Positions 6,646 through 49,068 of a DNA stretch of 64,000 nucleotides are shown one piece after another (the stretch's first letter is position 1; the number at the start of each line of letters is the position of its first letter). This DNA comes from Vulcanimicrobiota bacterium (GTDB lineage: Bacteria > Vulcanimicrobiota > Vulcanimicrobiia > Vulcanimicrobiales > Vulcanimicrobiaceae). A program made the position numbers and the translations under genes. The stretch spans positions 376,371 through 440,370 of the forward strand of contig CAVRQS010000003.1 in NCBI GenBank assembly GCA_963723485.1, read 5' to 3'. Under the pieces are notes generated by a model. It was given only the letters and a program-made list of their open reading frames with translations, was not told the DNA's origin and did not search any database.

Positions 6646-7617
6646 CTAGTTCCGAATGATCCGTCCAGTCTTCACGACTTCGAACGCGGTGTTCGGCACA
6701 CTCTTGAGCTGATCGAGGTCGTTGTCGTTCCAGCAGTGCGACGCCCAGCCGCCCTCGCCTTGGAAATACCAGTTCGACCCGTTGTCCGCAACGAGCATCC
6801 CGTACGTCTTCATCGCTACGGCGATGACGTGCGCCTGGCCCGTGATGTGCGAGATGTCGTATGAAGCCTTCATGCGGACGCGCAGCCCCATCGGCGGGAG
6901 CGCCTTGGCGCGGCTGTCGCTCGCATAGTGAGTCGCCGGATGGATATAGCCTTCTTGCGTTCGGCTGAACGTGACGCGCACCGCATGCGCAATCGTACCG
7001 GCCTGCACCTCGGCGCATTTGACCAGCGCGGGTAATATCGGCAGCCCCGCGGCATCGGCCGAGGTCCACCCGTTGGGCCGCAACTTGTTCGAGTCGAGGT
7101 GGAAGATCGCGCCGGAGCCGGCGCGCCAGCGCTTTCCAGCATCGCGCGGATACGCGTCCCACATCTCGTAGAGCTTACATTTTCCCTGTTGAAGAATTAG
7201 CACGTGACGATCGCCCGTCGCATGTTTGCCGCCTTCGATCTGCGGGTTTTTCGGAATCGGATACGGTCCCCGATTGCTCTCCGAGGCGTAATGAAACGTC
7301 ACGGGCACCTTCTTCTGCGTGCTGGGGACGATGTTGAACGGGATGCCGTAGTGTGGATCCTGTCCGAAATCGGGATGAAGGTTGCCCTGAAGGGTCGCGA
7401 TGTATCGATCGGATAGCGGGTCGAGCGGGTACTTCGAGATATCGGTGTTCCACGGATTGTTGGACGGAAATATCTGACAGCCGCCGACGATCGGAACTGC
7501 GGGCGAGACCCGAGTCGCGTCGACCGCGCGGGATGACTGCAACGTGCCCGGCACGTTCGTCCTCCCGCACGAGGCGAGGAACGAAGCGAGAACAAGCAGC
7601 GCCGGGGCCCGCGCCAT
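6646..7617 (-). CDS. conserved secreted lipoprotein of unknown function
   Basis: ORF 6646..8313 trimmed to the ATG at 7617. It has a lipoprotein signal MARAPALLVLASFLASC. Conserved-looking blocks are GDRHVLILQQGKCKLYEMWDA, NGWTSADAAGLPILP and YGMLVADNGSNWYFQG. The upstream 230 codons of the ORF are antisense to the real gene at 7678-8685. Confidence 0.8.
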   Translation of the reverse strand: MARAPALLVLASFLASCGRTNVPGTLQSSRAVDATRVSPAVPIVGGCQIFPSNNPWNTDISKYPLDPLSDRYIATLQGNLHPDFGQDPHYGIPFNIVPSTQKKVPVTFHYASESNRGPYPIPKNPQIEGGKHATGDRHVLILQQGKCKLYEMWDAYPRDAGKRWRAGSGAIFHLDSNKLRPNGWTSADAAGLPILPALVKCAEVQAGTIAHAVRVTFSRTQEGYIHPATHYASDSRAKALPPMGLRVRMKASYDISHITGQAHVIAVAMKTYGMLVADNGSNWYFQGEGGWASHCWNDNDLDQLKSVPNTAFEVVKTGRIIRN

Positions 7618-7677
7618 GCCAAACACTTCCCCGAATGCCGGCGGAGGGCCCTCTCTCCGGGGAGAAAGCCACCGAAC

Positions 7678-8685
7678 ATGCTCGCCGCGCTCGCACTCGT
7701 CGCATCCGCGAAGTGCTCCGTTACGATCTTTCCGCGCTTCGGCAATTACGCCGCGACGGCACGACTGCACGGCCCGGGGTTGCTGCTCGACGGCGGCGGC
7801 GCGCTCGAGGCTCCGAGCGCGTCGCTGCGCTGGATGCACCGGCGCCTGGTCGGCGAGACGAACGCGCGCGGCGGAAACGTCGTGGTGCTCCGTGCGTCGG
7901 ATCGCGATATCTACGATCGGCCTTTCTATCGCGACGGCGACTTCGCATCGGTACAGACGATACTCATTCCGCCCTGCGCGTCGCGCGACGCTGTCGATGC
8001 GGTCGCGCCCTTCGTCGACGCCGCCGATGCGGTCTATTTCGCGGGCGGCGATCAGGCCCACTACGTAGCGTGGAAAGGCAGCGCGCTGATGGCCGCGGTG
8101 CAACGCGTCTACGCGCGTCGCGGCGTCGTCGGCGGCGGCAGCGCGGGCCTGGCGATCCAAGGCGCGGTCGCTTACGACAGCGTGGCCGGCGACCGATTCA
8201 ACGTAAACGCGCACACGCGCGACGCCGTCACGAATCCGCTCGAACCGCGGATCAGTTTCACGACGGGACTTTTTGCGTGGCCCGCGCTGGCCGACACTAT
8301 CACCGACACGCACTTCGTCGTGCGCGATCGCTTCGGCCGAACCGTCGCATTCCTGGCCCGTATTTTACGAGATCGGCTGCTTCCAAATGTCCACGCGGTC
8401 TACGCGCTGGGCATCGACCAGGCCAGCGCGGTCGTCGTCGACCCCGACGGCACGGCCACGCTGTTCAACGCCCCGAACGGTAGCGGCGCGTACCTCATTC
8501 GCGCCACGGAGACGCCGCGCTTGACCGCCGGCAAACCGCTGCGCTACACGGTGAGGGTTTCGCACGTGCGCCGCGACGGCGAGCGCTTCGATCTGCTGCA
8601 TAAACGCACCCGTGATCCGTGGTACGCGGTGACCGTCGACGGCGGCCGTTCGCCGATCTACAGCCGCGATCCGTACGCGCCATGA
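7678..8685 (+). CDS. cyanophycinase-like peptidase S51 family protein
   Basis: LLLDGGGA...VYFAGGDQAHYV...GVVGGGSAGLAIQG is the S51/cyanophycinase nucleophile-elbow pattern. The stop overlaps the next start (ATGA). Confidence 0.75.
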   Translation: MLAALALVASAKCSVTIFPRFGNYAATARLHGPGLLLDGGGALEAPSASLRWMHRRLVGETNARGGNVVVLRASDRDIYDRPFYRDGDFASVQTILIPPCASRDAVDAVAPFVDAADAVYFAGGDQAHYVAWKGSALMAAVQRVYARRGVVGGGSAGLAIQGAVAYDSVAGDRFNVNAHTRDAVTNPLEPRISFTTGLFAWPALADTITDTHFVVRDRFGRTVAFLARILRDRLLPNVHAVYALGIDQASAVVVDPDGTATLFNAPNGSGAYLIRATETPRLTAGKPLRYTVRVSHVRRDGERFDLLHKRTRDPWYAVTVDGGRSPIYSRDPYAP

Positions 8686-14546: not shown

Positions 14547-15146
14547 GTGTCCGGCGTTCTGCGACCTCGGCTGGGTCCGTCCCTGCCGTCTCGTGCCGGA
14601 CTCGGCGGCGAAAGGGCGAAGCCCGCGGGCGTGGTCGACACCATTCCGGACGTAATCGCTCCCGGCTCGCTCGCGGATTACTTCGAGGTGTTGACGCGGG
14701 CCGTTTTCCAAGCCGGCGTGAGCTGGAAGCAGATCGCCCAGCATTGGGAGGCCTATTACGAAGCATTCGCGGGCTTCGATCCGGCTACCGTCGCCGCGTA
14801 CGACGACGTCGACGTCGATCGCGCGCTCGCAACGCCGGGAGTGCTGCGCATGCCGAGCAAGGTACGTGCGACGATCCGTAATGCAGGCGCCATGCTGCAG
14901 GCCGACCGCGAATACGGCGGCTTCGTGCGCTATCTGCGCTCGTTCGACTCGTACGCCGCACTCGCGAAGGATCTCAAGCAGCGCTTCGCGCTAATGGGCG
15001 ACATGAACGTCTGGTACTTCCTCTTCCGCACCGGCGAACGCGTGCCGCGCTTCGAGCCGTGGGTGGCCACCATTCGCGGCGACCACCCGCGGATGCGCGA
15101 GATGGTCGAGCGCGCTAGGGCGCGGGGCCGCTCGCCGGAATGCTGA
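14547..15146 (+). CDS. tag: DNA-3-methyladenine glycosylase I-like protein
   Basis: YFEVLTRAVFQAGVSWKQI...W..Y..AF.GFDP..VA and MGDMNVWYFLFRTG match the Tag (Adenine_glyco) pattern. The N-terminal start is uncertain. Confidence 0.75.
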   Translation: MSGVLRPRLGPSLPSRAGLGGERAKPAGVVDTIPDVIAPGSLADYFEVLTRAVFQAGVSWKQIAQHWEAYYEAFAGFDPATVAAYDDVDVDRALATPGVLRMPSKVRATIRNAGAMLQADREYGGFVRYLRSFDSYAALAKDLKQRFALMGDMNVWYFLFRTGERVPRFEPWVATIRGDHPRMREMVERARARGRSPEC

Positions 15147-16662
15147 CCAACCCGACGCGATTCGCATACGCCGCTAAGCGCGCACCGTCGTCGCCGCCGA
15201 ACGCCAATCCGACATAGCCGTCCGGGCGAACCAGATAGGCGGCGTCCTTCCCAAGCCCCGCGTCTTGCGCACCTGCGCCCCAAGCAAAAGCGTCGACCAC
15301 AAGGCCGCGCTGCGCGGCCGCCGCGGCGACCTGGGGGCCCGGCTCACCGTAGACGTGCACCTGCCAATCCAGCGACCGTAGCGGCGCGAAGTTATCGAGG
15401 CTCGCGACCCACGGCAGTCGATCGCCCCCTCGAACTCGCCCGGCTCGGCCTTCACTCAGGCTCGAGTCGGGATAGTGGATCTGCGTCTGCGAGACGATTC
15501 GAAAGAGGACGTGGCGCATGGACTCGAGTCGCGTGCCCGCTGCCAGCAGCACCGGTGCGAGGAAGCGCCGCGTCAGCTGACCGCGCGCCCCCGGCGCCAC
15601 GATCGCGGTGAACGCGCGGTCGGTCGTCGCCACCAAGGCGCGCGCGAACGCGATGCGTTCTTGCTCGAAGGAGTCGAGAACCGTCGCTGCGGTGCGGCCG
15701 GTGATTGCGTCGGCGAGCTTCCACCCGAGATTCGTCGCATCGCCGATCCCAGTGTTCATGCCCTGTCCGCCGGCGGGGCTGTGAATGTGCGCCGCGTCGC
15801 CGAGGATGAAGACGCGGCCGCAACGGAACCGCTCCGCGACGCGATGATGCACGCGATACGCCGCAAACCAGTTCACGTCGGTGACCTGCGCACCCAACAG
15901 CGGCTCGACGTAACCGCGAATGCTCTCGAACGTCATCGAGTCGCCTTCCGCGCATTCGCGCGGAGCCAAGCCGATCAATCGGCGCATCCCGGTCGAGCGC
16001 ACGGCGAAGATCAAAGCCAAGGCGTACTCGCCGAGCGTTACGTAGAGGTCGTGATCGAATGGCGCATCGATCTTCGCATCGCACACGAAAAAGAGCTGTT
16101 CGTAGGTCTTGCCCGCGAAACCGAGCCCGAGCGCCGTCCGCACCGCCGAGTGCGCTCCGTCGCAGCCGCACAGATAGTCGACCTCGAGCTCTTCGCTCCC
16201 GTTCGGACCGAGGAGTCCGGCTACGACGCTTCTCTCGCCGGCACGGGGCAATGCCGTAAGCTTGGTGTTCCACTCGACCCGGACGCCCGCCGCGGCTAGC
16301 TTCCTGATGAGGAAGCGCTCGTGGTCGTCTTGCGGGTAGGTGAGGGCGAAGGGAAACGGGCTGATTCCGTCGCCCAGGTCGGCGAAATTCAGCCGGACCA
16401 TCTCGCGCAGGCGCCCATCGCCGGCCGCCTCGCGCAAGCGCAGATGCGGCACGACGATCCCCTCGCCGACGATCTCCTCCGCGAATCCCAGCTGACGATA
16501 GAATTCAAGCGTCCGCGCCTGGACGACCATCGCGCGCGAGTGCTCGCCGGGACCGGCGGCGTCGGCGATGATGCGAAACGGTACGCCGCGCCGGGCGAGA
16601 TTCAACGCCAGCACGAGCCCCGTAGGGCCGGCTCCGACAATCAGAACCCGCGGGGAACTCAG
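15115..16662 (-). CDS. FAD-dependent aromatic-ring monooxygenase
   Basis: RVLIVGAGPTGLVLALNLARRG, CDGAHSAVR and GRVFILGDAAHIHSPAGGQGMNTGIGDATNLGWKLA. No ATG, GTG or TTG lies between the upstream stop (16674) and the Rossmann motif. The coordinate given uses CTG at 16662. The 415 upstream codons of ORF 15115..17907 are out-of-frame shadow of the receptor gene. Confidence 0.8.
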   Translation of the reverse strand: MSSPRVLIVGAGPTGLVLALNLARRGVPFRIIADAAGPGEHSRAMVVQARTLEFYRQLGFAEEIVGEGIVVPHLRLREAAGDGRLREMVRLNFADLGDGISPFPFALTYPQDDHERFLIRKLAAAGVRVEWNTKLTALPRAGERSVVAGLLGPNGSEELEVDYLCGCDGAHSAVRTALGLGFAGKTYEQLFFVCDAKIDAPFDHDLYVTLGEYALALIFAVRSTGMRRLIGLAPRECAEGDSMTFESIRGYVEPLLGAQVTDVNWFAAYRVHHRVAERFRCGRVFILGDAAHIHSPAGGQGMNTGIGDATNLGWKLADAITGRTAATVLDSFEQERIAFARALVATTDRAFTAIVAPGARGQLTRRFLAPVLLAAGTRLESMRHVLFRIVSQTQIHYPDSSLSEGRAGRVRGGDRLPWVASLDNFAPLRSLDWQVHVYGEPGPQVAAAAAQRGLVVDAFAWGAGAQDAGLGKDAAYLVRPDGYVGLAFGGDDGARLAAYANRVGLVSIPASGPAP

Positions 16663-16673
16663 TGACGCGCTCG

Positions 16674-19600
16674 TTAGGGCCCAGGCGACGGTGAGGAGTT
16701 CGGGATCACGGCCCGATTGTTCGGGCGAATGAGATAGAGTCCCACGCTGGGCGCATAGTTGAGCTCGGGGACCGGCCTGCCGTCGAGGCCGTGCGGAGCG
16801 AGCTCCTCGGTTGTCGTCGCGGCGATACGTCCGCAGACGACGAGCGCCGGAACGACGGTCGGATCGCCTGGATCGAGCTCGTACCACGTGCCGCTCTTCG
16901 CCGCGTGCGCGGTGATCGTCCAGCTCGCCGTCGCCGCTCCGTTGGCGAAATGGTTTCTCAGTTCTAGAAGCGACTGCGTTGCGAGATTCTTCACTTCCCC
17001 CGTACATGTCGCCGACGTACGCATCTGGAATGGATCCTTCGGCGGCGTCGTCGGCAACTTGTAGACGCGAAACGCTTCCTGACCCGCCTGCGGCTGGCGT
17101 GCGACGACATACAGACCGACCGCGGGCATGAAGTTCAGCTGCGGCACAAAGAACAGCGGACTCGTCGGCGCAAAAAGTTTGCGCCGGCTCACGTCGTCTG
17201 CTCTCGCGATGTGCAGCGACAGACAGGTCGCCACCGCGCGCAGCATCCCGCTGCCTTTCGGCGTGATCGCCAGCGCGTACGTCATGCCCAGCCCATGGTA
17301 CGTGATCGTCGCGTCCGGCAGCGCCGGCGCAGGCATCGTCGCCGGGTAGCCCGCCGCCGTGCGGGCCGCCTCCACTTTTGCCGCAAATGCCTTCAGCTCC
17401 GCGGCCAACTGCCGAGCCTTGGCGGCGTTGTCGGCGCTGCACGCCGCGGGATTGGCAGCGACGGCCAACGGATCGGCCGGCGGCGTCTGCGGCAGCGGCG
17501 AAAACAGCGACTGCAACCCGCGGCCTCCGCCTGGCCCACCGGGACCGCCAGGTCCGCCAGGACCTCCAGGAGCACCGAACGGCGCGCCGCCTCCGGTGCC
17601 GCGGGCGTGAAACGCGGTGGCCGTCTGCGACGAGGCGCCCTGACCGAACTTCGCGGAGTACGTGACCGAGACCGTGCGCGGCACGAGTGGCCGAGCCAGG
17701 TTGGCGATCACGATGCCGCCCGCGGTGGTGAAAGGCACGGCGTTGGCCGGACTCGCGAAGATGCCGGCATACGTGTTGGTGACATTGCTGGCCGCGAGAG
17801 TGAGCGTTCCGCGCGTCAGCTGCGCGGTGACGCCCGCGTCGAACGTCGTGTACGGCGGGAGATTGTTCGGGTTGTTCGCGCCGACGTGCTGCGCATCGGC
17901 AAGCCACTCGAACATCGAGCGCGACGGCTTATAGTCGAGCACGATGCCGGATTTGATCAGCGGGACGTTCGGAAGCTGCTGACCGGAAATCGTGATCGAC
18001 CACGGATTGCTGAAGAGGTAGCTGTTCGAGTCGGCCTGCGCGCCCGTGAGGTTATAGTATCCCTGGACGACGAGGTCACCGAAAGTGAAGTAGCCGGTGA
18101 GCTCCGCACCCTGGTAAAGCCGCTGCACGCCGGCAATCGGTGTCGTGAAATAGAGCTGCTGCGGCGCGAATGGCGTGCCCGCCGGTGCGTTGCAGCCGGC
18201 GGGAGAGTTGTAGAGAGCCGCAACCTCCGCGAGATAACCAGCCGGCAGTTGGCCGAGCTGGTTCAGGATCACCCCGTTGACGTACACCGGGAGCAGCACG
18301 CCGTTTTGCTGCTGGCGGTACAGCGTGAGTGCAACGTCGCCGCCGTGCAGCTGGTGCGTGTAGGTTAGGCGCGCCGACGTTGACGAGCTGTTCTGCGGCT
18401 GTTGGCCCGGCGCGTTGCCGTATGCGACCTTCCCGTTGCAGTCGAAGCGCAGCGACGCCGGATCGCTGAGAATTTGCAGGCGCCCCTGCGTGGCCGCCGC
18501 ACCGCCGAGCGCGAACGACGCGCTGTAGCTGTCGCGCGGCGTCGGGCGCCAGGCAGCCCCGACGCTGGCGAGCTCCGACACGCCGCTGTTGCCCGTCGCC
18601 GTGCTGAGCCCAGCCGATCCCGACAGCGTCAGTTTGTCGTTCGAGTGGACCGTGTCGGTGGCTTGCAGGACGGAATAATTCGTCGACTGCGACCCGCTGT
18701 AAAACAGCGCCGCCTGCGGAACGAGCGGCGTGGTCGCAAACTGCGACGACGTTCCATACGCCTGGATCGAGATCGTGTGGCGCTCTTTCGCCGGCAGCGT
18801 CGCATTCACGGTATAGCCGCTCGACTTGGTATTCGTGGAGTAGCCGGTCGGCGACGGGGCGCCGTTGACGTAGCGCGCCAGCTGGTTCAAGAGGCCGCTA
18901 GAATCGAAGGAAAAGAGCGCGGTCTGGATCTGGGTCGCGCCGACCAGGGCATTGTCGGTGACCGAATAGAGCTGGAGATTGGTCGTATCGGTGTTGTTCG
19001 GCCCGTAGCCGCAGGGCAGCGTCGTGGCGGGATCGCCGGGATAACGCAGGCACACGACGTTGGTGCTGCGGTTGGAGTTCATGAATATACCGGTCAGGGA
19101 ATCGGAATCGCCGAACTCGTAGCGCGCGCTGACGAGGTTGCCGGAGATCGTGCTGTCACCGTCGTGCGAGTAGCTGAGGCCGCTGGCATCCTCGTAGAAG
19201 TCCCCGTCCACCAGGCTCGGATACAATCGGTTGACGGTCTGCACGGCCACGCCGAGCTTGCCGATCGAGCCGCTCTCCGCAACCGAATAATTGTTGCGAC
19301 CGTAGCTTCCTACCGACATCTGCAGCTGCGTCTGCCAACTCAGCGTCGGCTGCAGCGTGCTGAAATTCACCGAACCACCGAGGCCGCCCAGCGTGGGTCC
19401 CATGTGAACCGAGGCACCTTGGAACAGATCGGTCGCGAAGCCGCCGAGATTGCCGGCCGAACCGGGCGCGTTGAGCGGGATCCCGTCTAGCGTCAGCTGC
19501 GTCTGCGTCGGATCGTGCCCCTCTAGCGAAATCGTCTGAGTCGCATCGCTGTCGTCGCTCGAGGTCGAGAGGCTTACTCCGGACAGCTTGTTGAGCGCAT

Positions 19601-20048
19601 CGGCCAAGTCGGTCGAGAGGCGCCGTTGCGCGGAGTTTTGATCGATGCTGCTGCTCGAGACGGTGGCCGATGCCTTGGCGGTCACCTGTCCGATAACTTT
19701 GAGACCGCCGTCCTCCAGCGCCAGCGCGAAGTTGACCGTCACCACGCGCCCGTCGAGCACCTCGAACGAAGCCGAGGTCAGGCTCTGGTAGCCGCGCTTG
19801 ACGATCCGCGCACGATAGATGCCGTCGGGTACGTCCGTGAACGTAACCTTGCCGTTCTTTCCGGTGATTTCCGACGTGATGACCGGGCCGTCGAGCAGCA
19901 CGCGCGCGAGTTCGAGCGGTTGCTTGGTACTCGCGTCTACCACGACGATGTCGATCTCCGCCGACTCGGATTGCGCCGGCGCCGGAGGCGCGCCGGTCGC
20001 GCATAGTATGACCAGGGCGACTGTCAGCCCAACGCAGCGCCGCAACAT
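16674..20048 (-). CDS. TonB-dependent-receptor-like outer-membrane protein with a ~320-aa C-terminal extension
   Basis: Trimmed to the ATG at 20048 with signal peptide MLRRCVGLTVALVILCATGAPPAPAQS. It has a CarboxypepD_reg-like domain, a plug-like segment (ISLEGHDPTQTQLTLDGIPLN) and a long barrel-like region ending in RTVSVTYSAKF. A G/P linker and two repeated modules follow in frame. Confidence 0.85.
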   Translation of the reverse strand: MLRRCVGLTVALVILCATGAPPAPAQSESAEIDIVVVDASTKQPLELARVLLDGPVITSEITGKNGKVTFTDVPDGIYRARIVKRGYQSLTSASFEVLDGRVVTVNFALALEDGGLKVIGQVTAKASATVSSSSIDQNSAQRRLSTDLADALNKLSGVSLSTSSDDSDATQTISLEGHDPTQTQLTLDGIPLNAPGSAGNLGGFATDLFQGASVHMGPTLGGLGGSVNFSTLQPTLSWQTQLQMSVGSYGRNNYSVAESGSIGKLGVAVQTVNRLYPSLVDGDFYEDASGLSYSHDGDSTISGNLVSARYEFGDSDSLTGIFMNSNRSTNVVCLRYPGDPATTLPCGYGPNNTDTTNLQLYSVTDNALVGATQIQTALFSFDSSGLLNQLARYVNGAPSPTGYSTNTKSSGYTVNATLPAKERHTISIQAYGTSSQFATTPLVPQAALFYSGSQSTNYSVLQATDTVHSNDKLTLSGSAGLSTATGNSGVSELASVGAAWRPTPRDSYSASFALGGAAATQGRLQILSDPASLRFDCNGKVAYGNAPGQQPQNSSSTSARLTYTHQLHGGDVALTLYRQQQNGVLLPVYVNGVILNQLGQLPAGYLAEVAALYNSPAGCNAPAGTPFAPQQLYFTTPIAGVQRLYQGAELTGYFTFGDLVVQGYYNLTGAQADSNSYLFSNPWSITISGQQLPNVPLIKSGIVLDYKPSRSMFEWLADAQHVGANNPNNLPPYTTFDAGVTAQLTRGTLTLAASNVTNTYAGIFASPANAVPFTTAGGIVIANLARPLVPRTVSVTYSAKFGQGASSQTATAFHARGTGGGAPFGAPGGPGGPGGPGGPGGGRGLQSLFSPLPQTPPADPLAVAANPAACSADNAAKARQLAAELKAFAAKVEAARTAAGYPATMPAPALPDATITYHGLGMTYALAITPKGSGMLRAVATCLSLHIARADDVSRRKLFAPTSPLFFVPQLNFMPAVGLYVVARQPQAGQEAFRVYKLPTTPPKDPFQMRTSATCTGEVKNLATQSLLELRNHFANGAATASWTITAHAAKSGTWYELDPGDPTVVPALVVCGRIAATTTEELAPHGLDGRPVPELNYAPSVGLYLIRPNNRAVIPNSSPSPGP

Positions 20049-20106
20049 GTCTTCGCGATTATACGGAATTGGCGCGGCCGCAAGCCTTGAACCGCGCTGG
20101 GAAAGC

Positions 20107-21486
20107 TCAGATCGTGATCGTGACGGCCGTTCCGTGGCCGGGCGCGCTGTCGATCGCGATGTCGCCGCCGACGCGCTCCACGGCCCGCTTTGCGATGGCG
20201 AGGCCGAGGCCCGTTCCGGCGATCTCGCCGCGCTGGTCGCCGCGATAGAAGCGTTCAAACGCATGCACGCGCTCCGACTCGGACATGCCCGGACCCTCAT
20301 CGCTGACGCGGATGATCGAATGGCCATTGTTGCGCGTCGCGCGCAGATGAATCGGCGCATCCGGAGCATACTTGAGCGCATTTTCGATGACGTTCCAAAC
20401 CGCTTCGGCCAGCTCACCGCGATCCGCCTGTACGGTCTCGACCCCGTCGATGCTGTAGTCGATGATGCGCCGATCGTCGAGCCTGCGGGCGGCATCGCAT
20501 TGACCGCGCAGGAGCTCGGCGACGTCGACCGTTTCGATGTGCGGGGGTGCCTCGGAGTCGAGCCGCGCGAGCCGCATGAGCCGATCGATCAGGCCGCGCA
20601 TGTGCTCCTTCTCGATTGACATGGTGCCAAGAATCTGGCGAGCGATGCGAGGTTCCTCGATCGCGCCGCGCCGCAGCACGTCGATGTATCCGCCGATCAC
20701 AGTGAGCGGCGTTCGGAGCTCGTGCGAGGCGTCGGCGGCAAACTGGCGCATCCGCTCTTCGCCGTGCTTCCGGTGCTCGATCGCGGTCGCGACGCTCGCG
20801 ACGGCGTCGTTGAAGGCCGCAGTGAGCGACGCGATCTCGTCGCCCCCGGCCATGACGAATCGGCGTTGCGTGTAGTCGCCGTCAGCGAGGGCCCGTAGTG
20901 AGTTGCTGACCTCGTTGATGGGTCGTAGCGACTGCTGCGCGAATAGGCGCCCGACGAACCACGAAAGCAAAATCGCCGCGGCGCCGATCGTCAAAACGAT
21001 CCGCCAATACGGGATCAGCGAGACGAGCAACAGCGGAAATGAAGGGCCAAAACCGACATATCCCCCCTCCACGTAGGTGAGCGACAGCGGCTCGAGCCCG
21101 GTAGGATCGAGAGGCGCCGGCTTCCCCCTGGCGACGCGAGGGATGAAGTGTTGCATGCCGCCTGCCGCGAGCACGGCGGGCAGCAGTTTGGGCCGCAGAG
21201 TCTTATCGCCGGCGAGGTAGCGGCCTTTGAGATCGAAGACCGTGACGCGTAGGCCGATCCCGCTGAGCGCATTGACGATTTCCGGCGCTGCTTGTTTGAG
21301 GCTCATGCCCTCGCGACGGTACTGATCGACTAAGATGTGAGCCTGTTCGTGTTTGGCAAACAGTACGTCGCCGGAAAACCGCCAGAGCTCGAAGACGAGC
21401 GCGATCGACGACGCCAAGATGACGATGACGACCGTCACGCCCAGTAGTACCGCGTAGAGGGCGGACAGGCGCGCTGCCAGCTTCAC
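20107..21486 (-). CDS. sensor histidine kinase (HAMP-HisKA-HATPase)
   Basis: Two TM helices. H-box FAADASHELRTPLT. N, G1 and G2 boxes (VWNVIENALKYA, DEGPGM, GTGLGLAI). Confidence 0.92.
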   Translation of the reverse strand: MKLAARLSALYAVLLGVTVVIVILASSIALVFELWRFSGDVLFAKHEQAHILVDQYRREGMSLKQAAPEIVNALSGIGLRVTVFDLKGRYLAGDKTLRPKLLPAVLAAGGMQHFIPRVARGKPAPLDPTGLEPLSLTYVEGGYVGFGPSFPLLLVSLIPYWRIVLTIGAAAILLSWFVGRLFAQQSLRPINEVSNSLRALADGDYTQRRFVMAGGDEIASLTAAFNDAVASVATAIEHRKHGEERMRQFAADASHELRTPLTVIGGYIDVLRRGAIEEPRIARQILGTMSIEKEHMRGLIDRLMRLARLDSEAPPHIETVDVAELLRGQCDAARRLDDRRIIDYSIDGVETVQADRGELAEAVWNVIENALKYAPDAPIHLRATRNNGHSIIRVSDEGPGMSESERVHAFERFYRGDQRGEIAGTGLGLAIAKRAVERVGGDIAIDSAPGHGTAVTITI

Positions 21487-21498
21487 CGGCGTTTGCCT

Positions 21499-22176
21499 CT
21501 ACTGAGAGAGGCCGTAGCCGACGCCACGGACGGTTCGAATGAACGAGCCCGGTTCGCCCGCCCGGTCGATTTTCGCGCGCAGGTAGGAAATGTAGGTCTC
21601 GACGATGTTCGGGCCACCCTCGAAGTCGTGTCCCCAAACGATCTCGAGCAGATGGTCTTTGCTGAAGACGCGCCGCGGCTCGCGCATGAACACCTCAAGC
21701 AGGTCGAACTCGCGCTGAGTGAACTCGAGCGGATCTTTGCCGCGCCAGGCTTCGCGGGTCCCCGGATTGATCGAGATCTCACGCCACCGCAGCACGTTCT
21801 CCTCGATGAGCTGCGGCCGGCGCAGCTTCGCTTGAAGACGCGCAATCAGCTCCTCAAAAACGAAGGGTTTGACGAGATAATCATCGGCACCGGAGCTGAG
21901 TGACCGGACCTTATCCTCCGTTCCGCCCTTGGCAGTCAACATGAGGATCGGCGCCTGGGTGATCTCGCGCAACCGCGGCAGCAACGTGACCCCATCGATC
22001 TTGGGCATCATAATGTCGAGGACGATGAGCTCCGGATCGAAGATCTTGACGAGCTCCAGGGCGGCCAAGCCATCCGTTGCCGTCCGCACCTCGTAGCCCT
22101 CGCGGGAGAGCCCCAGTTCCAACATCTCCCGAACCATACGGTCGTCGTCGATGACCGCAACGCGGGCATTGGGCAT
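21499..22176 (-). CDS. OmpR-family response regulator
   Basis: Receiver domain (VAVIDDD...DIMMPKIDG...LTAKG) plus winged-helix (LLEIVWG.......NIVETYISYLRAKI). Start is the ATG at 22176 or at 22185. Confidence 0.92.
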   Translation of the reverse strand: MPNARVAVIDDDRMVREMLELGLSREGYEVRTATDGLAALELVKIFDPELIVLDIMMPKIDGVTLLPRLREITQAPILMLTAKGGTEDKVRSLSSGADDYLVKPFVFEELIARLQAKLRRPQLIEENVLRWREISINPGTREAWRGKDPLEFTQREFDLLEVFMREPRRVFSKDHLLEIVWGHDFEGGPNIVETYISYLRAKIDRAGEPGSFIRTVRGVGYGLSQ

Positions 22177-22187
22177 GATCACCATTT

Positions 22188-22664
22188 CTACGCTGCATCG
22201 TGCTTTGCCACCCTTGGAGCAGCCTGAACTGGCCACCGGCCCACCCGCTGCCCGCAAACTAAAGCCGCCTGCCCGATGGCTTCAAGGGGATGCGATATCA
22301 CGCAAATTCCGCGCTTCTCCAGCGTCTGCAACGTCTCGTCGTCGGGAAGCCACCGAGCAAAAACGTGGACCTCACGGGTGCCGGCGGCCTCAGCCAAGAC
22401 CGCCATCACGTCTGCGAGCGTGCACTCGTGCTCGGCCAGGAGCCGGGCGACGACCTCACTCCGGAAGCGCGGCGCACTCCACCCGGCGGCGACCACGAGG
22501 AGTCGGGAGAGCTCGGCCAGCCGCGTCGCCTCAAAGTCGATCACGGCCGCCTTAACGCAGGCCGCCAGGCCGGCCTCGGTCTGGGCGTGCAGAGCCGCCG
22601 CCGCGATCGACCCGCTCGGCCCCGCCTCCAGAAGCGCCCCGGCCCCTATAAAATACTCGTCCAT
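22188..22664 (-). CDS. hypothetical protein, first gene of the two-component/receptor array
   Basis: ORF trimmed to the ATG at 22664 (MDEYFIGAG). About 158 aa, soluble, with no family I recognise. It ends 2-11 nt before the response regulator start. Confidence 0.5.
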   Translation of the reverse strand: MDEYFIGAGALLEAGPSGSIAAAALHAQTEAGLAACVKAAVIDFEATRLAELSRLLVVAAGWSAPRFRSEVVARLLAEHECTLADVMAVLAEAAGTREVHVFARWLPDDETLQTLEKRGICVISHPLEAIGQAALVCGQRVGRWPVQAAPRVAKHDAA

Positions 22665-40641: not shown

Positions 40642-41784
40642 ATGGAACGGGGACCCGCATGGCGTAACGCTGCGGACGCCTGGTTCAAGCTGCTAGCGGC
40701 GATAGGGATCGGCTACTTCTTGCTCGGGCAGACCGTTGCCATACTGAAGGATTTCAGTGGCATAGCGGTCATTCTGATCGGCGGCATTCTGCTCGCATAT
40801 TTCGTCTATCCCGCAATCGCCCGCCTCAACCGCCGGCTGCCTCTCTGGGCGGCGTTATCGATCGTCTACGTCAGCGGGCTCGTCGTCATTGCGGCCATCT
40901 TTTACCTGCTCGTGCCGCAGGCCGTCGCCCAGATCGAGGGCCTCGTCCACGACTGGCCGATCATCGAAAAGTCGGTGCGCGGCTATATCGAGAGTCCGGA
41001 CAATCCGTTCTTCACGACGCTGCCCGCGGCCGCTCAGGATTGGATTATGAAGCTGCCGAGTCAGGTGGGCGCGGATTTGCAGCGCCATGCGCTCGCGTAC
41101 GGTTCTCGGGTGGTCAACGCTCTCGCGATCGTCGTCGGCGTCGGCGCATTGGCCATCGCGATACCGGTTGTGTCGATCTACATGCTTGCCGAATCGCCGA
41201 TGATCAAACGCTTCTTCGTGCAAAGCTTCAAGCCGCGCTCTCGCGCTCGGGTCGTAGCGATCCTGCACGACGTCGATCAGGTGATCGGGGGATTCATTCG
41301 CGGGCAGATCATCGTCGCGGCGGTCGTGGGAATCCTCGCGATCGTCGCCCTCATGATCCTGCACGTTCGCTACGCGGTCATCATCGGCGTCTGGGCAGGC
41401 ATCATGGATATCATTCCGTACATCGGCCCCATCGCGGGCGCCATCCCCGCGGTGATCGTTGCGTTGATCTTCAACGGGCCCGGCGCCGCGCTCGGCGTGA
41501 TAGTAGCGTTCACCGTGATCAATCAACTGGAGGGACACCTGCTCGCGCCTCGCATCGTCAGCAACAGTGTGAAAATCACGCCGCTGGCGGTCATCTTCGC
41601 GCTGCTGATCTGCGCCAAAATCTTCGGGTTCATCGGCCTGATCGTCGCCGTCCCTCTCGCCGGAATCGTCCGCGTGTTTCTCACGCACATCTTCCAAGAG
41701 GATGCCGTAACAAACGCGCAGCTGAAGCCTGGCCTGACTCAGGCGCCCCGTTCTCGAGTCGATCCTCGAGCCACGAAATCGTAG
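40642..41784 (+). CDS. AI-2E family transporter (PerM/UPF0118)
   Basis: 380 aa with 8 helices. The motif IPYIGPIAGAIPAVIVAL...QLEGHLLAPRIV is typical of the family. Confidence 0.9.
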   Translation: MERGPAWRNAADAWFKLLAAIGIGYFLLGQTVAILKDFSGIAVILIGGILLAYFVYPAIARLNRRLPLWAALSIVYVSGLVVIAAIFYLLVPQAVAQIEGLVHDWPIIEKSVRGYIESPDNPFFTTLPAAAQDWIMKLPSQVGADLQRHALAYGSRVVNALAIVVGVGALAIAIPVVSIYMLAESPMIKRFFVQSFKPRSRARVVAILHDVDQVIGGFIRGQIIVAAVVGILAIVALMILHVRYAVIIGVWAGIMDIIPYIGPIAGAIPAVIVALIFNGPGAALGVIVAFTVINQLEGHLLAPRIVSNSVKITPLAVIFALLICAKIFGFIGLIVAVPLAGIVRVFLTHIFQEDAVTNAQLKPGLTQAPRSRVDPRATKS

Positions 41785-41811
41785 CGGCCGAAAGGTGGGT
41801 ACACCGATGGC

Positions 41812-42534
41812 ATGAAGCTCGCTGCCGGCGCGCTTGCGCTGCTGGCGTTCGTGCCGCTGAAGGCTCCGTCTGCCGAGGAAGCGGCCGACCTCTACGCGAT
41901 GCACTGCTCGTCGTGTCACGGCGACCACGGCCAAGGGTCCAACGTCGCACCGTCGCTGATCGGCCGGTCGGCAGCCGACATTCACTTCATGCTCGACACC
42001 GGCAGGATGCCCGCGACGATCCCGTATGTCGGCGAAATTCATCGCGAGCCGCGCTTCACGCAGGTACAGATGGCCCGGCTAGTGCGCTACATCCAGGCGT
42101 TCTCGCCGGCTCCGCCGGACGCGTCGCTGCCGCTCGTAATGCCGGGGAACGTCCAGCGCGGCCGCGCGCTCTTCGCCGAGAACTGCGCCCAGTGCCACGG
42201 CGCCGCGGGCGCCGGCGCTTCCGTGGGATCCGCCGACGTCGCACCGTCGCTCGGCGTTGCGACGGTCTTCCAGGTGGCAGAGGCCATCCGTGCCGGACCG
42301 TCCGTTATGCCGCGCTTCGGACCCGACGTGTTGAGCGATCAGGACGTCAGCGACATAGCCCGGTACGTCAACTACGCACAGACGCAGGCCGGCATTCCCA
42401 ACGGGGAGGACGCAGGCGGCTTCTCGTTGGGCCACGTCGGACCGGTCGCGGAGGGCTTCGTGGCTTGGCTCTTCGGATTGGGCGCGCTGGTGCTGTTCGT
42501 CCGCAGGATCGGCACGGCCGGCACGGACGAGTGA
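41812..42534 (+). CDS. qcrC: dihaem cytochrome c subunit of the bc1 complex (QcrC-like)
   Basis: Signal peptide, two CxxCH motifs (CSSCH, CAQCH) and a C-terminal TM anchor (FVAWLFGLGALVLFV), as in actinobacterial QcrC. Confidence 0.8.
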   Translation: MKLAAGALALLAFVPLKAPSAEEAADLYAMHCSSCHGDHGQGSNVAPSLIGRSAADIHFMLDTGRMPATIPYVGEIHREPRFTQVQMARLVRYIQAFSPAPPDASLPLVMPGNVQRGRALFAENCAQCHGAAGAGASVGSADVAPSLGVATVFQVAEAIRAGPSVMPRFGPDVLSDQDVSDIARYVNYAQTQAGIPNGEDAGGFSLGHVGPVAEGFVAWLFGLGALVLFVRRIGTAGTDE

Positions 42535-42548
42535 TCGAGGCGCAGGAT

Positions 42549-42941
42549 CTAGGGCCCGGTTCGCGCGCTTTCCGCACCGAGTCGCCAAAAACACAGGATC
42601 ATTCCAATCAAACCGGCGATGCCGAGGAGCGGCGACCAAAGCATTCCAACCAGAAGTGCGAGCGTGCACAGCGCTATCAAAATCGGCCATGGACTCTCGG
42701 TCGTGAACACGTCGAGCACCTCGCCGGCGACGCGCTCGTTAGTCTCGTCCGGATCGTCGCCCTCCAAGTGCGCCTCGCGCTCGGCCAGCACCGCATAGAG
42801 CGTCGCGAATGCCAGCGCGGCCCCCATCACGGCGAGCAGCGCCGTGCCCGCAGCCTCTTCGTGCGCAACGAACCAGTATACGATCGCGATCGCGAAACCG
42901 AACGCGGCATCGATTGCAAACAATCCGACGAACGTCTTCAT
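42549..42941 (-). CDS. ctaF: cytochrome c oxidase subunit IV (actinobacterial CtaF type)
   Basis: 130 aa with 4 helices. Motifs YWFVAHEEAAGTALL and AGEVLDVFTTESPWP. Located directly downstream of ctaD. Confidence 0.75.
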   Translation of the reverse strand: MKTFVGLFAIDAAFGFAIAIVYWFVAHEEAAGTALLAVMGAALAFATLYAVLAEREAHLEGDDPDETNERVAGEVLDVFTTESPWPILIALCTLALLVGMLWSPLLGIAGLIGMILCFWRLGAESARTGP

Positions 42942-42948
42942 TCTTCGC

Positions 42949-44502
42949 TCAAGACTCCAGCGCCGGCCGACGGCCCCGAATCGGCGGCAGCGCCTCGAAA
43001 TTGAACTCCGGCGGGGGCGAGCTCGTCATCCACTCGAGCGAATAGCCGCCCCAGGGATTATCAGCGACCGGTGCCCTTCTCCGTGCCGAGACGAGCACGT
43101 CGACGAAGAAAGCGATCGCGCCAAGGGTCATCAAGGCGGCGCCCAAGGACGCGATTCCGTTGAGCAACGCCAGGTGGCCGATCGCGGGATAAGTGTAGAC
43201 GCGGCGCGCCATGCCTTCCATGCCCATGAAGCCCATCGGAATAAATGTCCCGTTGAAGCCCACGAAGAGCAAGGCGAAGGCCCAGCGGCCGATGCGCTCG
43301 TCGAGCCGGACGCCGAACATCTTCGGAAACCAGAAATACAGCGCGCCGAAGAGGGCGAACATACTTCCGCCGCCGATCGTATAGTGGAAGTGCTGAACGA
43401 TGAAGTAACTGTCGTGGGCATGGTAATCGATGGGCGGCGACGCGATCATCACGCCCGTGATGCCCCCGATGAGAAAATTCAGCATGAAGCCGATCGCGAA
43501 CAGCATGGGAACGGTCAAGGCGATGGATCCCTTCCACATGGTCCCGATCCAGTTGACGAACTTCACGCCCGTAGGGACCGCGATCAGGAAGGAGACTGCG
43601 GAGAAGAACGGGTTGCTCACCGCCCCCGTCGTGAACATGTGGTGCGCCCATACGCCAAGCGACAGGCCTGCGATTGCAAAGGCCGCGATTACCATCCCGA
43701 CGTATCCGAAGACGGGCTTCCGCGAGAACGTGGCGACGATCTCGGTAATGATGCCGAAATAGGGCAGGATCATCACGTAAACTTCCGGGTGGCCGAAGAA
43801 CCAAAAAAGGTGCTGATAGAGAATCGGATTGCCGCCGAATGCAGGGTCGAAGAAGTGTCCGCCCATGTGCCGTTCGATCAGCACGAGGGCGAACGCGGCG
43901 GCCAGCGACGGGAAGGCCATCAGTACCAGGACGGCGGTGGCCACGATCTCCCACGTGAAGATCGGCATCCGCCACATCGTCATGCCGGGTGCGCGAAGCA
44001 GAAAGACGGTCACGAGCAGATTGATCGACGTGACGATCGTGGAGACGCTCGTCATCAACAGACCGATGAAGAACAGGTCCTGCCCCGCCCCGGTGCCCTC
44101 GAAGAACTCGTCGAGCGGCGCATAGGAGGTCCAGCCCGTCGCCGCCGCTCCGCCATACGCCGCGAGGCCCGCGAAGACGGTGATTCCGCCGAGCACGAAC
44201 AGCCACAGCCCCGTCGCGTTGAGCCGGGGAAAGGCCACGTCCGGCGCACCGATTTGAAGCGGAACCAAGTAGTTGGCCAGACCGATTCCGAAGGGCGCGA
44301 TCACCAGGAAAATCATGGCGGTGCCGTGCAGAGTAAAGATCTGATTGTACGCGTGCGCGCTCAACAACGAATTATCCGGCACGGCCAATTGCGCGCGAAT
44401 CAGCGCGGCGAGCACTCCCGCCGCGACGAAGAAGCCTAGCGTCGCAACGACGTACATGATGCCGATCTTCTTGTGATCGGTGGTCGTGATCCACTCGATC
44501 AC
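42949..44502 (-). CDS. ctaD: cytochrome c oxidase subunit I
   Basis: GTG start at 44502 overlaps the ctaC stop (GTGA). WITTTDHKKIGIMY, FFGHPEVYV, WAHHMF and HDSYFIVQHFHY haem/CuB ligand motifs. The ORF-track start at 44706 is an upstream artefact. Confidence 0.95.
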   Translation of the reverse strand: MIEWITTTDHKKIGIMYVVATLGFFVAAGVLAALIRAQLAVPDNSLLSAHAYNQIFTLHGTAMIFLVIAPFGIGLANYLVPLQIGAPDVAFPRLNATGLWLFVLGGITVFAGLAAYGGAAATGWTSYAPLDEFFEGTGAGQDLFFIGLLMTSVSTIVTSINLLVTVFLLRAPGMTMWRMPIFTWEIVATAVLVLMAFPSLAAAFALVLIERHMGGHFFDPAFGGNPILYQHLFWFFGHPEVYVMILPYFGIITEIVATFSRKPVFGYVGMVIAAFAIAGLSLGVWAHHMFTTGAVSNPFFSAVSFLIAVPTGVKFVNWIGTMWKGSIALTVPMLFAIGFMLNFLIGGITGVMIASPPIDYHAHDSYFIVQHFHYTIGGGSMFALFGALYFWFPKMFGVRLDERIGRWAFALLFVGFNGTFIPMGFMGMEGMARRVYTYPAIGHLALLNGIASLGAALMTLGAIAFFVDVLVSARRRAPVADNPWGGYSLEWMTSSPPPEFNFEALPPIRGRRPALES

Positions 44503-46629: not shown

Positions 46630-48000
46630 ATGACCAACGTCGAGCGGTTCCTGCTGTGGGTCGACGACCGTCTGGGAACGGCGCATTTCGTGCCCCACGC
46701 GCTGCGCAAGGCATTCCCCGACCACTGGTCGTTCATGCTCGGCGAGATCAACCTGTACGTATTCCTCGTGTTGCTCGCGACGGGCACGTTCCTAGCGTTC
46801 TTCTTCAAGCCGAGCGCCGCGGAGACGATCTACCACGGACCATATAGGCTGCTCGATGGCGCGCACGTCTCGCACGCCTACGCGTCGACGCTGGATCTGA
46901 GCTTCGTCGTCAACTGCGGCCTGCTGGTGCGTCAGATCCATCATTGGGCCGCGCTCGTTTTCGTTGCCGGCATCGCGACGCACATGGGGCGCGTATTCTT
47001 CACGGCGGCGTTCCGCAGACCGCGCGAGATCAACTGGATCATTGGCGTGCTGCTCTTCTGGTCGGCGCTCTTCGAGGGGTTCACGGGTTATTCGCTGCCC
47101 GACGATCTCCTGAGTGGAATCGGATTGCGCATCGCGGACGCCGTGCTGCTCGCGGTCCCGGTGCTGGGTACTTGGCTATCGTTTCTGTTGATCGGGGGCA
47201 TCTATCCGACCGAGCAGATCGTCGAGCGGCTTTTCGTGGTGCACATCTATCTCATGCCGGCGATCATCGCGACCCTGATCGCGCTGCACCTAGCCATCGT
47301 GTGGCGCCAGAAGCATTCACAGTTCCCGGGGCCCGGCCGCACCGAGCACAACGTCGTCGGGTCGCCGATGGTGCCGCGGTACGCAGCCAAATCGATCGCG
47401 CTGCTGCTCGCCGTCGTCGCCGCCCTATCGGCGCTCGGGGCGCTGGTCCAGATCAATCCCGTGTGGCTATGGGGACCGTACAAGTCGTGGATCGCGTCGA
47501 GCCCAGCGCAGCCGGACTGGTACATCGGCTGGCTCGAGGGTGCGCTGCGCATGGGTCCCGCGTTCGCACTGCATCTCTGGGGCCATACGGTCCCATCGCC
47601 ATTTTGGCCCGCGGCGTTGTTGCCGCTCGTTTTATTCGTTCTTTTGCTGATCTGGCCGTGGATCGACGCCGCCCTGCGCCACGATCGGCGCCCGCATCAA
47701 TTGCTCGACAACCCGCGCGACGTTCCGTGGCGCACGGCCCTCGGCGTGGCGGTCTTCGTCTTTGCCCTCGGGCTCACGCTTGCCGGAAGCGACGACGTGC
47801 AGGCGCGTTACGTGCACGCGCCGATCACGGCGATTACGCAATTCTACAGGTACTTCTGCATCGTCGGACCGATCTTGGGGTTCGTGATCGCATACGTTGT
47901 CGCCGCCGAGTTGCGGGCGAGCGGCGGCGTACAGAAGGCGCCGCGCATCCGGCTCCGCCGCAACGCGCGCGGCGGCTTCGACGAGGAGCCGCTCCCGTGA
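46630..48000 (+). CDS. qcrB: cytochrome b subunit of the bc1 complex
   Basis: 456 aa. Motifs FPDHWSFMLGEINLY and RQIHHWAA. The long actinobacterial-type QcrB architecture. Confidence 0.92.
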   Translation: MTNVERFLLWVDDRLGTAHFVPHALRKAFPDHWSFMLGEINLYVFLVLLATGTFLAFFFKPSAAETIYHGPYRLLDGAHVSHAYASTLDLSFVVNCGLLVRQIHHWAALVFVAGIATHMGRVFFTAAFRRPREINWIIGVLLFWSALFEGFTGYSLPDDLLSGIGLRIADAVLLAVPVLGTWLSFLLIGGIYPTEQIVERLFVVHIYLMPAIIATLIALHLAIVWRQKHSQFPGPGRTEHNVVGSPMVPRYAAKSIALLLAVVAALSALGALVQINPVWLWGPYKSWIASSPAQPDWYIGWLEGALRMGPAFALHLWGHTVPSPFWPAALLPLVLFVLLLIWPWIDAALRHDRRPHQLLDNPRDVPWRTALGVAVFVFALGLTLAGSDDVQARYVHAPITAITQFYRYFCIVGPILGFVIAYVVAAELRASGGVQKAPRIRLRRNARGGFDEEPLP

Positions 48001-49068
48001 GGCGAAGGCAACTCAAAGTGGCCTGCTGGATCGCGGCGTTCGCCCTCGGCGCGGCAGCCATTGCCCCGCCGCTCGACCGACTCGCCGATCGTTCCTTTAC
48101 CTGGCATATGCTGCAGCATCTCGTGCTGCTGTACTGTCTTCCGCTGCTCGTGCTTCTCGCGCGGCCCTTCGACACGTTCGCCGCTCTCGCAGGGAAGAGC
48201 GCGACGGCGCGGCTCGTGCGCGCGACGCGTCCACTGCACGTTCTCGCGTCGCCTCCTGTGGCTCTCGGTGTCTTCGTTGCTGCGATGTGGCTGACGCACT
48301 ACTCCGGTCTCTACGAGCGATCGCTCGAGAGCGCGCCCGTGCACGCCGCCGAGCATCTCGTCTATCTCCTGGCCGGCACGCTGTTCTGGCTGCCGGTGCT
48401 CGCGCCGCCGCCGTTGCGTCCCTGGAGCTTCCCGGCGCGACTGCTGTACCTCGTGCTGGCGCTGCCCCAGGGGGCGCTGCTCGGCATGGCCCTGGGCAGC
48501 GCGCGCGAGCCGCTCTATCCGCACTACGTAGCGCTGGAGGGCTCGATCTCCGCGGCGCTGCGCGACCAACACGCCGCCGCCGCGCTCATGTGGATCGCCG
48601 GCGGCATGATCGTGTTCGCGGCGCTGTTGATTGTGCTGGGCGCGTGGGCGCGCCGCGAATCGATCACCGCCGTCGCACCCCCGCTCGCGATCCTGTTGTG
48701 CGCGATCGTGCTGCGCGGCGCGGTCGCGGCGCCGCCGGCCCCTGCTGCGCCGGCATACACAGAGGAGCAGGCCGTCAAGGGACAGATTCTATTCTACGAA
48801 AACTGCGCCGAGTGTCACGGCGCCAGCCTCGAAGGCAATTTCGGCCCGGCGCTCGCCGGATCGAATGTCGAACGTGCAGTGGGAGACGGTGAGCTATGTC
48901 TGGACCTACATGACCGCGCACATGCCCGCGGGGAATGCCGGCGGCCTGCGGCCGGAGGAGTACCTCGAGATCATGGCGTTCCTCTTGAAGACGCACGGGC
49001 ATGCGCCCGGCACGGCGGGCTTGTCGCCGCAGGCCGCGGCCGGCTCGAAAGCGTTCATGGGGCCGTGA
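47997..49068 (+). pseudogene. ctaG: caa3-type CtaG assembly factor fused to a C-terminal cytochrome c domain, with the frame broken by a 7-nt tandem duplication
   Basis: GTG at 47997 overlaps the qcrB stop (GTGA). It has 7 helices with the motifs FTWHMLQHLVLL and HAAEHLVYLLAG, followed by YENCAECHG...GPALAGS. The cytochrome c domain continues only in the +1 frame (NVQWETVSYVWTYMTAHMPAGNAGGL...) up to the TGA at 49066-49068. The duplicated heptamers are tcgaatg and tcgaacg at 48861-48874. Confidence 0.7.

Follow-up and report, generated by a model that had tools for sequence, protein, structure and literature searches.

A conserved tandem domain beyond the last barrel strand of a TonB-dependent transporter family in Eremiobacterota

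The TonB-dependent transporters of known structure, such as Cir, BtuB, FrpB, ChuA/ShuA, PfeA and PirA, end at the last strand of the barrel with an aromatic residue, and to our knowledge the accessory domains of this protein class (STN, the CarboxypepD_reg extension and AMIN) are all N-terminal. A survey of 34,893 such transporters found variation only at the N terminus, and defined the Oar subclass by its CarboxypepD_reg N-terminal extension (PMC6434023). Here we describe an Oar-type transporter that does not end at its last strand. It is encoded by the open reading frame (ORF) at 16674-20048, on the minus strand, of a 64,000-nucleotide stretch (the window) of contig CAVRQS010000003.1 from a Vulcanimicrobiota bacterium, and translates to 1124 amino acids (aa); the coordinates given below for its parts are all on this strand. 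Residues 1-802 follow the order of signal peptide, CarboxypepD_reg domain, candidate TonB box, plug and barrel of the Oar type (exemplified by Oar of Myxococcus xanthus; size ~1000-1100 aa), and the plug-in-barrel fold is that of the solved transporters, although sequence identity to these is only 12-15%. What sets the protein apart from the Oar type is an extra 320-residue C-terminal linker and tandem domain, which we refer to as the tail, together with a score below threshold for the Pfam barrel model PF00593.

Among other outer-membrane proteins, OmpA, the ushers of chaperone-usher systems and intimin/invasin normally carry further domains after the β-signal. An earlier reading of this locus from its letters only (the sequence-only reading) had assumed that the aromatic β-signal is always the last residue; this does not hold in general, as these proteins demonstrate, but it does hold for the TonB-dependent transporters surveyed so far. 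OmpA and OprF likewise consist of a barrel, a Pro/Gly-rich hinge and a globular periplasmic domain, with an internal β-signal. Their barrel has 8 strands, however, in place of the plugged 22-strand barrel found here, and the tail has neither a PF00691 match nor a fold match. The ushers PapC and FimD also combine a large plugged barrel with two tandem periplasmic C-terminal domains, but theirs is a barrel of 24 strands into which the plug is inserted, the C-terminal domains are β-sandwiches, and no likeness of sequence or fold to them was found here.

We are highly confident that the architecture of transporter, linker and tandem tail is genuine and conserved. There are at least 120 whole-protein homologues at 65-90% identity, almost all of them ~1100-1150 aa long; the 120 listed are nearly all labelled Eremiobacterota, Cybelea or Baltobacteraceae, and the four shorter entries among them are partial or frameshifted. 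Among 1.84 billion representative proteins, a tail profile matched 228 clusters (50% identity). In each full-length one (1004-1138 aa) the tail sits right at the C-terminal end, with at most four residues after the profile match, and both modules are clear in 79 of 83. In all, more than 200 full-length homologues keep the architecture, down to ~25% identity. Barrel and tail lie in a single ORF in 75 of the 85 loci that were fetched; five more are cut by a contig end and five have overlapping frames, and in no case does a stop close the barrel ahead of a second gene. The sequence-only reading had offered two explanations of the extension, a new receptor-coupled domain or a fusion of two genes with a possible lost stop. 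The conservation supports the first, and the loci lead us to reject the second, the arrangement that would have spoken for it (a stop right after AKF in related genomes) being absent from this set.

It is likewise scarcely conceivable that a lost stop, an indel or a mis-assembly joined the receptor gene to a downstream gene in a recent accident. Such an origin draws some support from tail-only "hypothetical proteins" in the databases, some of them on long contigs; these entries trace to contig ends or to the products of frameshifted long-read assemblies, and the short tail-only representatives all lack a signal peptide. Two candidates for stand-alone tail genes on long contigs, P0137 and P0143 (contig of L024), were dismissed on these grounds, as both come from frameshifted assemblies. 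In loci L003, L024, L054 and L072 the barrel and tail parts are in overlapping frames, and in L001, also from a frameshifted long-read assembly, the receptor is spread over three ORFs and the kinase next to it over two. The long-read contigs of these five loci, from metagenome-assembled genomes, thus create spurious tail-only entries on contigs of megabase size.

The receptor part is well defined. The mechanical ORF reaches upstream to 20495, and we chose the start at 20048 as the right one because it yields a signal peptide and homologues of matching length, those of 1105-1147 aa aligning from this position. The signal peptide, read from the sequence, comprises residues 1-25 (MLRRCVGLTVALVILCATGAPPAPA, then QS; 19974..20048). 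A full-length AlphaFold2 model, built on a 112-sequence alignment (mean predicted local distance difference test score, pLDDT, 81.6), begins with a helix at residues 2-18, followed by a low-confidence stretch. The N-terminal extension is a CarboxypepD_reg domain at residues 35-109 (19722..19946; PF13620, E 3e-9, 37.5 bits against a cut-off of 32.3), and in a profile search of the PDB this region aligns to the N terminus of the receptor 9gbc_A. The Plug domain occupies residues 125-218 by Pfam, or to ~235 in the model (19395..19676; PF07715, E 2.6e-9, 38 bits against a cut-off of 23.9), and aligns in the PDB profile search to the plugs of Cir, BtuB and ShuA. Between extension and plug, conservation and position single out a TonB-box-like motif, LKVIGQVTA (residues 116-124; 19677..19703), in which I119 is kept in 107 and V122 in 101 of the 112 aligned family sequences, and of which residues 121-124 form a short strand of low confidence in the model. 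By its resemblance and by its place, which is that expected for Oar-type transporters, we take this motif to be a candidate TonB box.

Residues 239-802 (17643..19334) form a barrel of 22 long strands in the model, with pLDDT values of ~90. Compared with the PDB by Foldseek, the full-length model gave 195 matches at E≤1e-3, and all the top ones listed are TonB-dependent transporters (Cir, 2e-26; BtuB, 2.5e-25; also FrpB, ChuA and PfeA). Cir, FrpB, BtuB and ChuA match at E 1e-26 to 1e-24 with target TM-scores of 0.69-0.78, and the solved transporters as a whole at E 2e-26 to 1e-22 with target TM-scores of 0.6-0.8. The barrel model PF00593, whose threshold our protein does not reach, does appear in the precomputed Pfam annotation of three close homologues. 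The NCBIfam scan of the protein yielded only sub-threshold receptor matches, over the plug, and Pfam gave no match to STN (PF07660). Pfam, the model and Foldseek thus agree with the sequence-only reading on a TonB-dependent-receptor-type protein with CarboxypepD_reg domain, plug and barrel. These results and the position of the LKVIGQVTA motif identify residues 1-802 as an Oar-type TonB-dependent transporter; a terminal aromatic residue is a usual rather than a defining property of the class, so that its absence from the end of the protein leaves this membership standing. No tonB or exbBD gene is present among the scanned ORFs of the window, although 64 kb is uninformative on the genome. Four cysteines of the barrel region, C333, C346, C537 and C619, are invariant in all 112 aligned family members, and probably form two disulfides of extracellular loops.

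The last barrel strand in the model is TVSVTYSAKFG, residues 792-802 (17643-17675). This agrees exactly with the barrel end proposed from the sequence, at the Phe of RTVSVTYSAKF (F801; codon 17646-17648), after which the protein continues for 323 residues. Across the 112-sequence alignment, position 801 is F in 37, I in 24, V in 22 and L in 15 sequences, and among the distant paralogues only 9 of 83 have F there; the following Gly802 is kept in 110 of the 112. The terminal aromatic is dispensable in this tail-bearing family. The last strand otherwise keeps its alternating hydrophobic pattern, a strongly conserved Tyr797 and the [aromatic/hydrophobic]-x-[aromatic/hydrophobic] core of the β-signal consensus (PMC10945584).

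The variability of position 801 bears on one possible function of the tail, namely that of an intramolecular chaperone or targeting element with which the phylum's BAM machinery would assemble these very large barrels, perhaps offsetting the lost aromatic. Most distant paralogues have I, V or L in place of Phe, with an invariant Gly after it, and the tail co-occurs strictly with this barrel type, as this idea would lead one to expect. We nevertheless regard it as very unlikely: the β-signal core is retained in the last strand, proteins of the OmpA type assemble with an internal β-signal and without special aid, and nothing ties the tail fold to known chaperones.

After the barrel comes a Gly/Pro-rich linker, residues 803-849 (17502..17642), which the sequence-only reading had also picked out. 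It is disordered in the model (pLDDT 25-42, with residues 807-847 below 50) and includes a GAPGGPGG run that begins at residue 825 (17574-17576). Linkers of the family are 13-58 aa long (median 27.5), and Gly, at 22%, is more frequent in them than any other residue.

The chain is confidently folded again from residue 848 to 1109 in the full-length model, and a separate model of the tail (residues 843-1124) has a mean pLDDT of 83.6. The tail consists of two modules of ~115-150 aa, both built in the same way: an LPxxPPxDPF arm, a Cys, a helix of 20-23 residues, a β-hairpin, a helix to a second Cys, a strand, a short helix and a loop, closed by a hairpin that bears the motif [LF][ND][YF]xPxxG[LFI]Y. 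In module 1 (residues 850-997; 17058..17501) the LPxxPPxDP arm is followed by Cys870, the long helix, a hairpin, a helix ending at Cys942, a strand, a helix and the hairpin NFMPAVGLY. Module 2 (residues 998-1112; 16713..17057) repeats this layout with Cys1015, Cys1072 and the hairpin LNYAPSVGLY. The two are clearly homologous by profile-profile comparison (hhalign probability 99.6%, E 8.6e-24, 114 columns), from which we conclude that they arose by duplication. The tandem modules with a shared closing motif described from the sequence are thus confirmed, with exact coordinates: FVPQLNF begins with residue 967 (17148-17150), and PVPELNY follows 125 residues later, with residue 1092 (16773-16775). 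The protein ends with a Pro/Ser-rich segment of low confidence (residues 1113-1124, which with the stop codon TAA at 16674-16676 covers 16674..16712; pLDDT <50), and this end (...RPxPRxSPSPSP after module 2) is found in close orthologues and not in distant paralogues. We also considered the GLY hairpin as a second β-signal and dropped the idea, since its hydrophobic residues follow one another instead of alternating and, in the model, the hairpin lies within a globular domain.

Conservation within the tail is confined to few positions. Cys870, Cys942 and Gly978 are invariant in the family alignment, as are Cys1015, Cys1072 and Gly1103 in the second module, and Tyr980 is nearly so. Down to 24-30% identity, the only invariants of the tail are the four Cys and the two Gly, with a few Pro and Tyr residues coming close, and exactly four tail Cys are present in 200 of 201 full-length family members. 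We read this invariant set as probably one disulfide per module, expected to join Cys870 to Cys942 and Cys1015 to Cys1072, which would fit an oxidising extracytoplasmic location. The even number of strands points in the same direction, because by the known topology of the transporter family the chain leaves strand 22 towards the periplasm; the tail would accordingly reside in the periplasm, as had been presumed from the sequence. Invariants limited to Cys, Gly, Pro and Tyr argue against a conserved catalytic site or a site for a common ligand.

The modules, which the sequence-only reading did not recognise, are also unrecognised by the databases. Pfam has nothing in the last 323 residues of the protein, and no match at E≤1 either for the tail or for 22 diverse tails of the family; NCBIfam has nothing in the tail, a sequence-profile search of the PDB gave no match, and Foldseek of the tail model found none at E≤1e-3 in the PDB and BFVD. 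The best local Foldseek match, of one module to the type IV pilin fold (4d40_A), reached only E 1.1 with a probability of 0.72 over 59 columns, and was rejected. A match to a well-described periplasmic domain family, which would have made the extension commonplace, was thus searched for and did not turn up. In the literature we found no description of a C-terminal domain on a TonB-dependent transporter, nor of Eremiobacterota receptors. The tail is a previously undescribed tandem domain that matches no known family or fold.

These searches also bear on whether the tail might tether the outer membrane to the cell wall, by binding peptidoglycan or another periplasmic polymer so that the receptors double as anchors. 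In its succession of barrel, Gly/Pro hinge and globular periplasmic domain the protein does resemble OmpA, tandem repeats are typical of polymer-binding modules, and many paralogues would provide many anchors. In addition, most diderm Terrabacteria are described as lacking Lpp, Pal and OmpA and as using OmpM instead (PMC10628300). The SLH-bearing OmpM/SlpA proteins of other Terrabacteria are a parallel to our receptor only if the tail is indeed a tether. We consider this unlikely. Neither Pfam nor Foldseek against the PDB revealed any likeness of the tail to OmpA_C (PF00691), SLH, LysM or SPOR, or to any other family or fold; the domain occurs on one receptor type only, whereas known wall-binding domains span many architectures; its polar residues are never invariant across the family, as a common ligand would demand; and its isoelectric point is neutral.

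The tail is essentially restricted to Eremiobacterota (= Vulcanimicrobiota), where it is always C-terminal on this receptor type and occurs in many paralogues. A scan of GTDB with one genome per species found 159 loci, of which 80 were kept, and these are all from Eremiobacterota except for two short contigs in bins labelled otherwise. A word-indexed search with a diverse profile likewise returned only Eremiobacterota receptors or fragments of them, and neither the profile nor the genome searches revealed a free-standing tail with a signal peptide, or a tail on any other type of protein. The two exceptional contigs, L018 (in a bin labelled Candidatus Acidoferrum) and L079 (in a bin labelled Alphaproteobacteria), both carry the tail with the glycosylase gene beside it. 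On L018 the regulator, the kinase and the LuxR-type gene are found as well, arranged as usual, and since the syntenic locus is complete there, at least this contig is probably mis-binned.

The usual gene order is a conserved block of a LuxR-type STAND regulator, a response regulator, a histidine kinase and the receptor, followed by a methyladenine glycosylase on the other strand and an amine oxidase. In the window, the sensor histidine kinase (20107..21486, minus strand; HAMP, HisKA and HATPase_c by Pfam) lies 58 nt before the receptor start, and is syntenic in 65 of 81 related loci. Upstream of it lies an OmpR-family response regulator (21499..22182, minus strand; Response_reg and Trans_reg_C by Pfam), syntenic in 62 of 81 loci at 81-99% identity, mostly 94-99%. 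It remains 94-99% identical in most of the species whose receptor reaches only 60-80% identity. Among NCBIfam models the regulator matches MtrA best, with PhoB and RpaB-type models also among its best matches, all below their cut-offs, and the best matches of the kinase, likewise sub-threshold, are WalK and PhoR. Read from its sequence, the kinase has a periplasmic segment of ~115 aa between two hydrophobic stretches. A scan of 16300-22600 for promoters and terminators was uninformative, and the window contains no second tail-bearing paralogue. Directly after the receptor stop lies an FAD-dependent aromatic-ring hydroxylase (15115-16650, minus strand), which occupies this place in only 8 of the 81 related loci; in the others the receptor is directly followed by the methyladenine glycosylase gene, and we therefore regard the hydroxylase as a variable insertion.

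The same order of response regulator, kinase and receptor is seen in pfeR-pfeS-pfeA and pirR-pirS-pirA of Pseudomonas aeruginosa, where the two-component systems adjoin the receptors that they induce. The likeness is one of gene order and does not imply orthology, the regulator here being nearest to the MtrA, PhoB and RpaB-type models named above. The succession of regulator, kinase and envelope protein also recalls mtrA-mtrB-lpqB and walRK-yycHI.

Such an arrangement could mean that the tail is a signalling accessory that would touch the sensor domain of the neighbouring kinase and relay whether the receptor is occupied, in analogy to the N-terminal signalling domain of FecA and FpvA, to LpqB in mtrA-mtrB-lpqB or to YycH/YycI in the walRK operon. 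The conserved order on one strand, with a gap of ~60 nt between kinase and receptor, speaks for it, as do the near identity of the regulator across most species, its leaning towards MtrA (and that of the kinase towards WalK and PhoR), and the ~115-aa periplasmic segment of the kinase. The transducers FecA and FpvA, too, have an extra periplasmic domain on the receptor that could in principle address an inner-membrane sensor, and FpvA is among the Foldseek matches of the full-length model. Their STN domain, however, is N-terminal, present in a single copy and paired with an anti-sigma factor, whereas the neighbours here are a two-component system and the STAND regulator, with no sigma/anti-sigma pair; nor was any receptor signalling domain among the listed matches of the tail-only Foldseek search of the PDB. 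Moreover, three distant paralogues (P0193, P0224 and P0243) carry the same tail in unrelated neighbourhoods with no two-component system adjacent, so that the tail family as a whole cannot be dedicated to a kinase, and a link between tail and two-component system was ruled out as a family-wide rule. Plain transcriptional control would explain the synteny without the tail, as it does for pfeR-pfeS-pfeA, and PfeA has no tail. On balance a role in signalling is distinctly improbable.

The reading that we favour is that the tail, as a tethered binding module, serves the transport cycle of the receptor that carries it, and for this class of explanation we see roughly an even chance. The tail is confined to the receptor, it has no polar residues that are invariant across the family, and its divergence keeps pace with that of the plug and barrel (in distant members, 26-32% identity to our protein for the tail and 27-35% for plug and barrel); together these observations favour a role tied to the receptor over a generic one. 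The unrelated neighbourhoods of the paralogues we also count in favour of a receptor-intrinsic role. We also infer that the tail is non-enzymatic and not a generic cell-wall-binding domain. The pair of domains would be a lineage-specific accessory module of Eremiobacterota receptors, held in the periplasm after strand 22 by the flexible linker, and each domain would probably be locked by its one disulfide; the phylum does have an outer membrane, being diderm (PMC6664022; PMC9758169). From there it might fold back on the periplasmic face of the receptor, on the plug or on the N-terminal extension; alternatively it might capture the emerging substrate, or dock a periplasmic partner specific to each paralogue. 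For this orthologue, the upstream two-component system would probably control expression of the receptor, as PfeRS does for PfeA.

Several points weigh against a receptor-tied binding module. A long, variable and disordered linker suits reaching away from the receptor at least as well as folding back. The most conserved motifs, PPxDPF and [LF][ND][YF]xPxxG[LFI]Y, could form an interface shared by the family for a common partner, such as peptidoglycan or the Ton complex, which would favour the alternatives, and the tight synteny with a two-component system could mean a signalling role after all. The statement that the tail has no known fold, moreover, refers to the PDB and BFVD searches.

A broader proposal is that the tail represents a new class of periplasmic coupling domain, one that alters how transporters connect to the envelope across the phylum, either as a wall tether or by adding to the TonB box a second periplasmic contact, made with the Ton motor or a sensor kinase. 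We put this forward tentatively, as a possibility that we hold to be rather unlikely; if true, no TonB-dependent transporter before these would have had a functional domain at its C terminus. Should the tail function in transport, tethering or signalling, it would add a new element to the model of receptor-envelope coupling. Whatever its function, the tail family (more than 200 sequence clusters in a widespread and barely cultured soil phylum) breaks the rule that the last strand ends the transporter. A 22-strand barrel with an internal, non-aromatic β-signal also offers a natural test of the need of BAM for a C-terminal aromatic. The tail merits a domain family of its own, its carriers being labelled at present "TonB-dependent receptor", or "hypothetical protein" when split by a frameshift.

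Two further observations concern the window outside this locus. Four ORFs of 542-654 aa (16-1887 and 41040-43004, plus strand; 62368-63996 and 6646-8313, minus strand) have no Pfam match at E≤1e-5, and some of them may be spurious or mis-started in this high-GC window. An ORF of 1270 aa at 46944-50756 (plus strand), near genes for COX1, a Rieske protein and cytochrome c, joins a Caa3_CtaG cytochrome oxidase assembly domain (residues 343-570) to a PQQ-type β-propeller dehydrogenase domain (residues 749-1055), in what looks like an unusual fusion.

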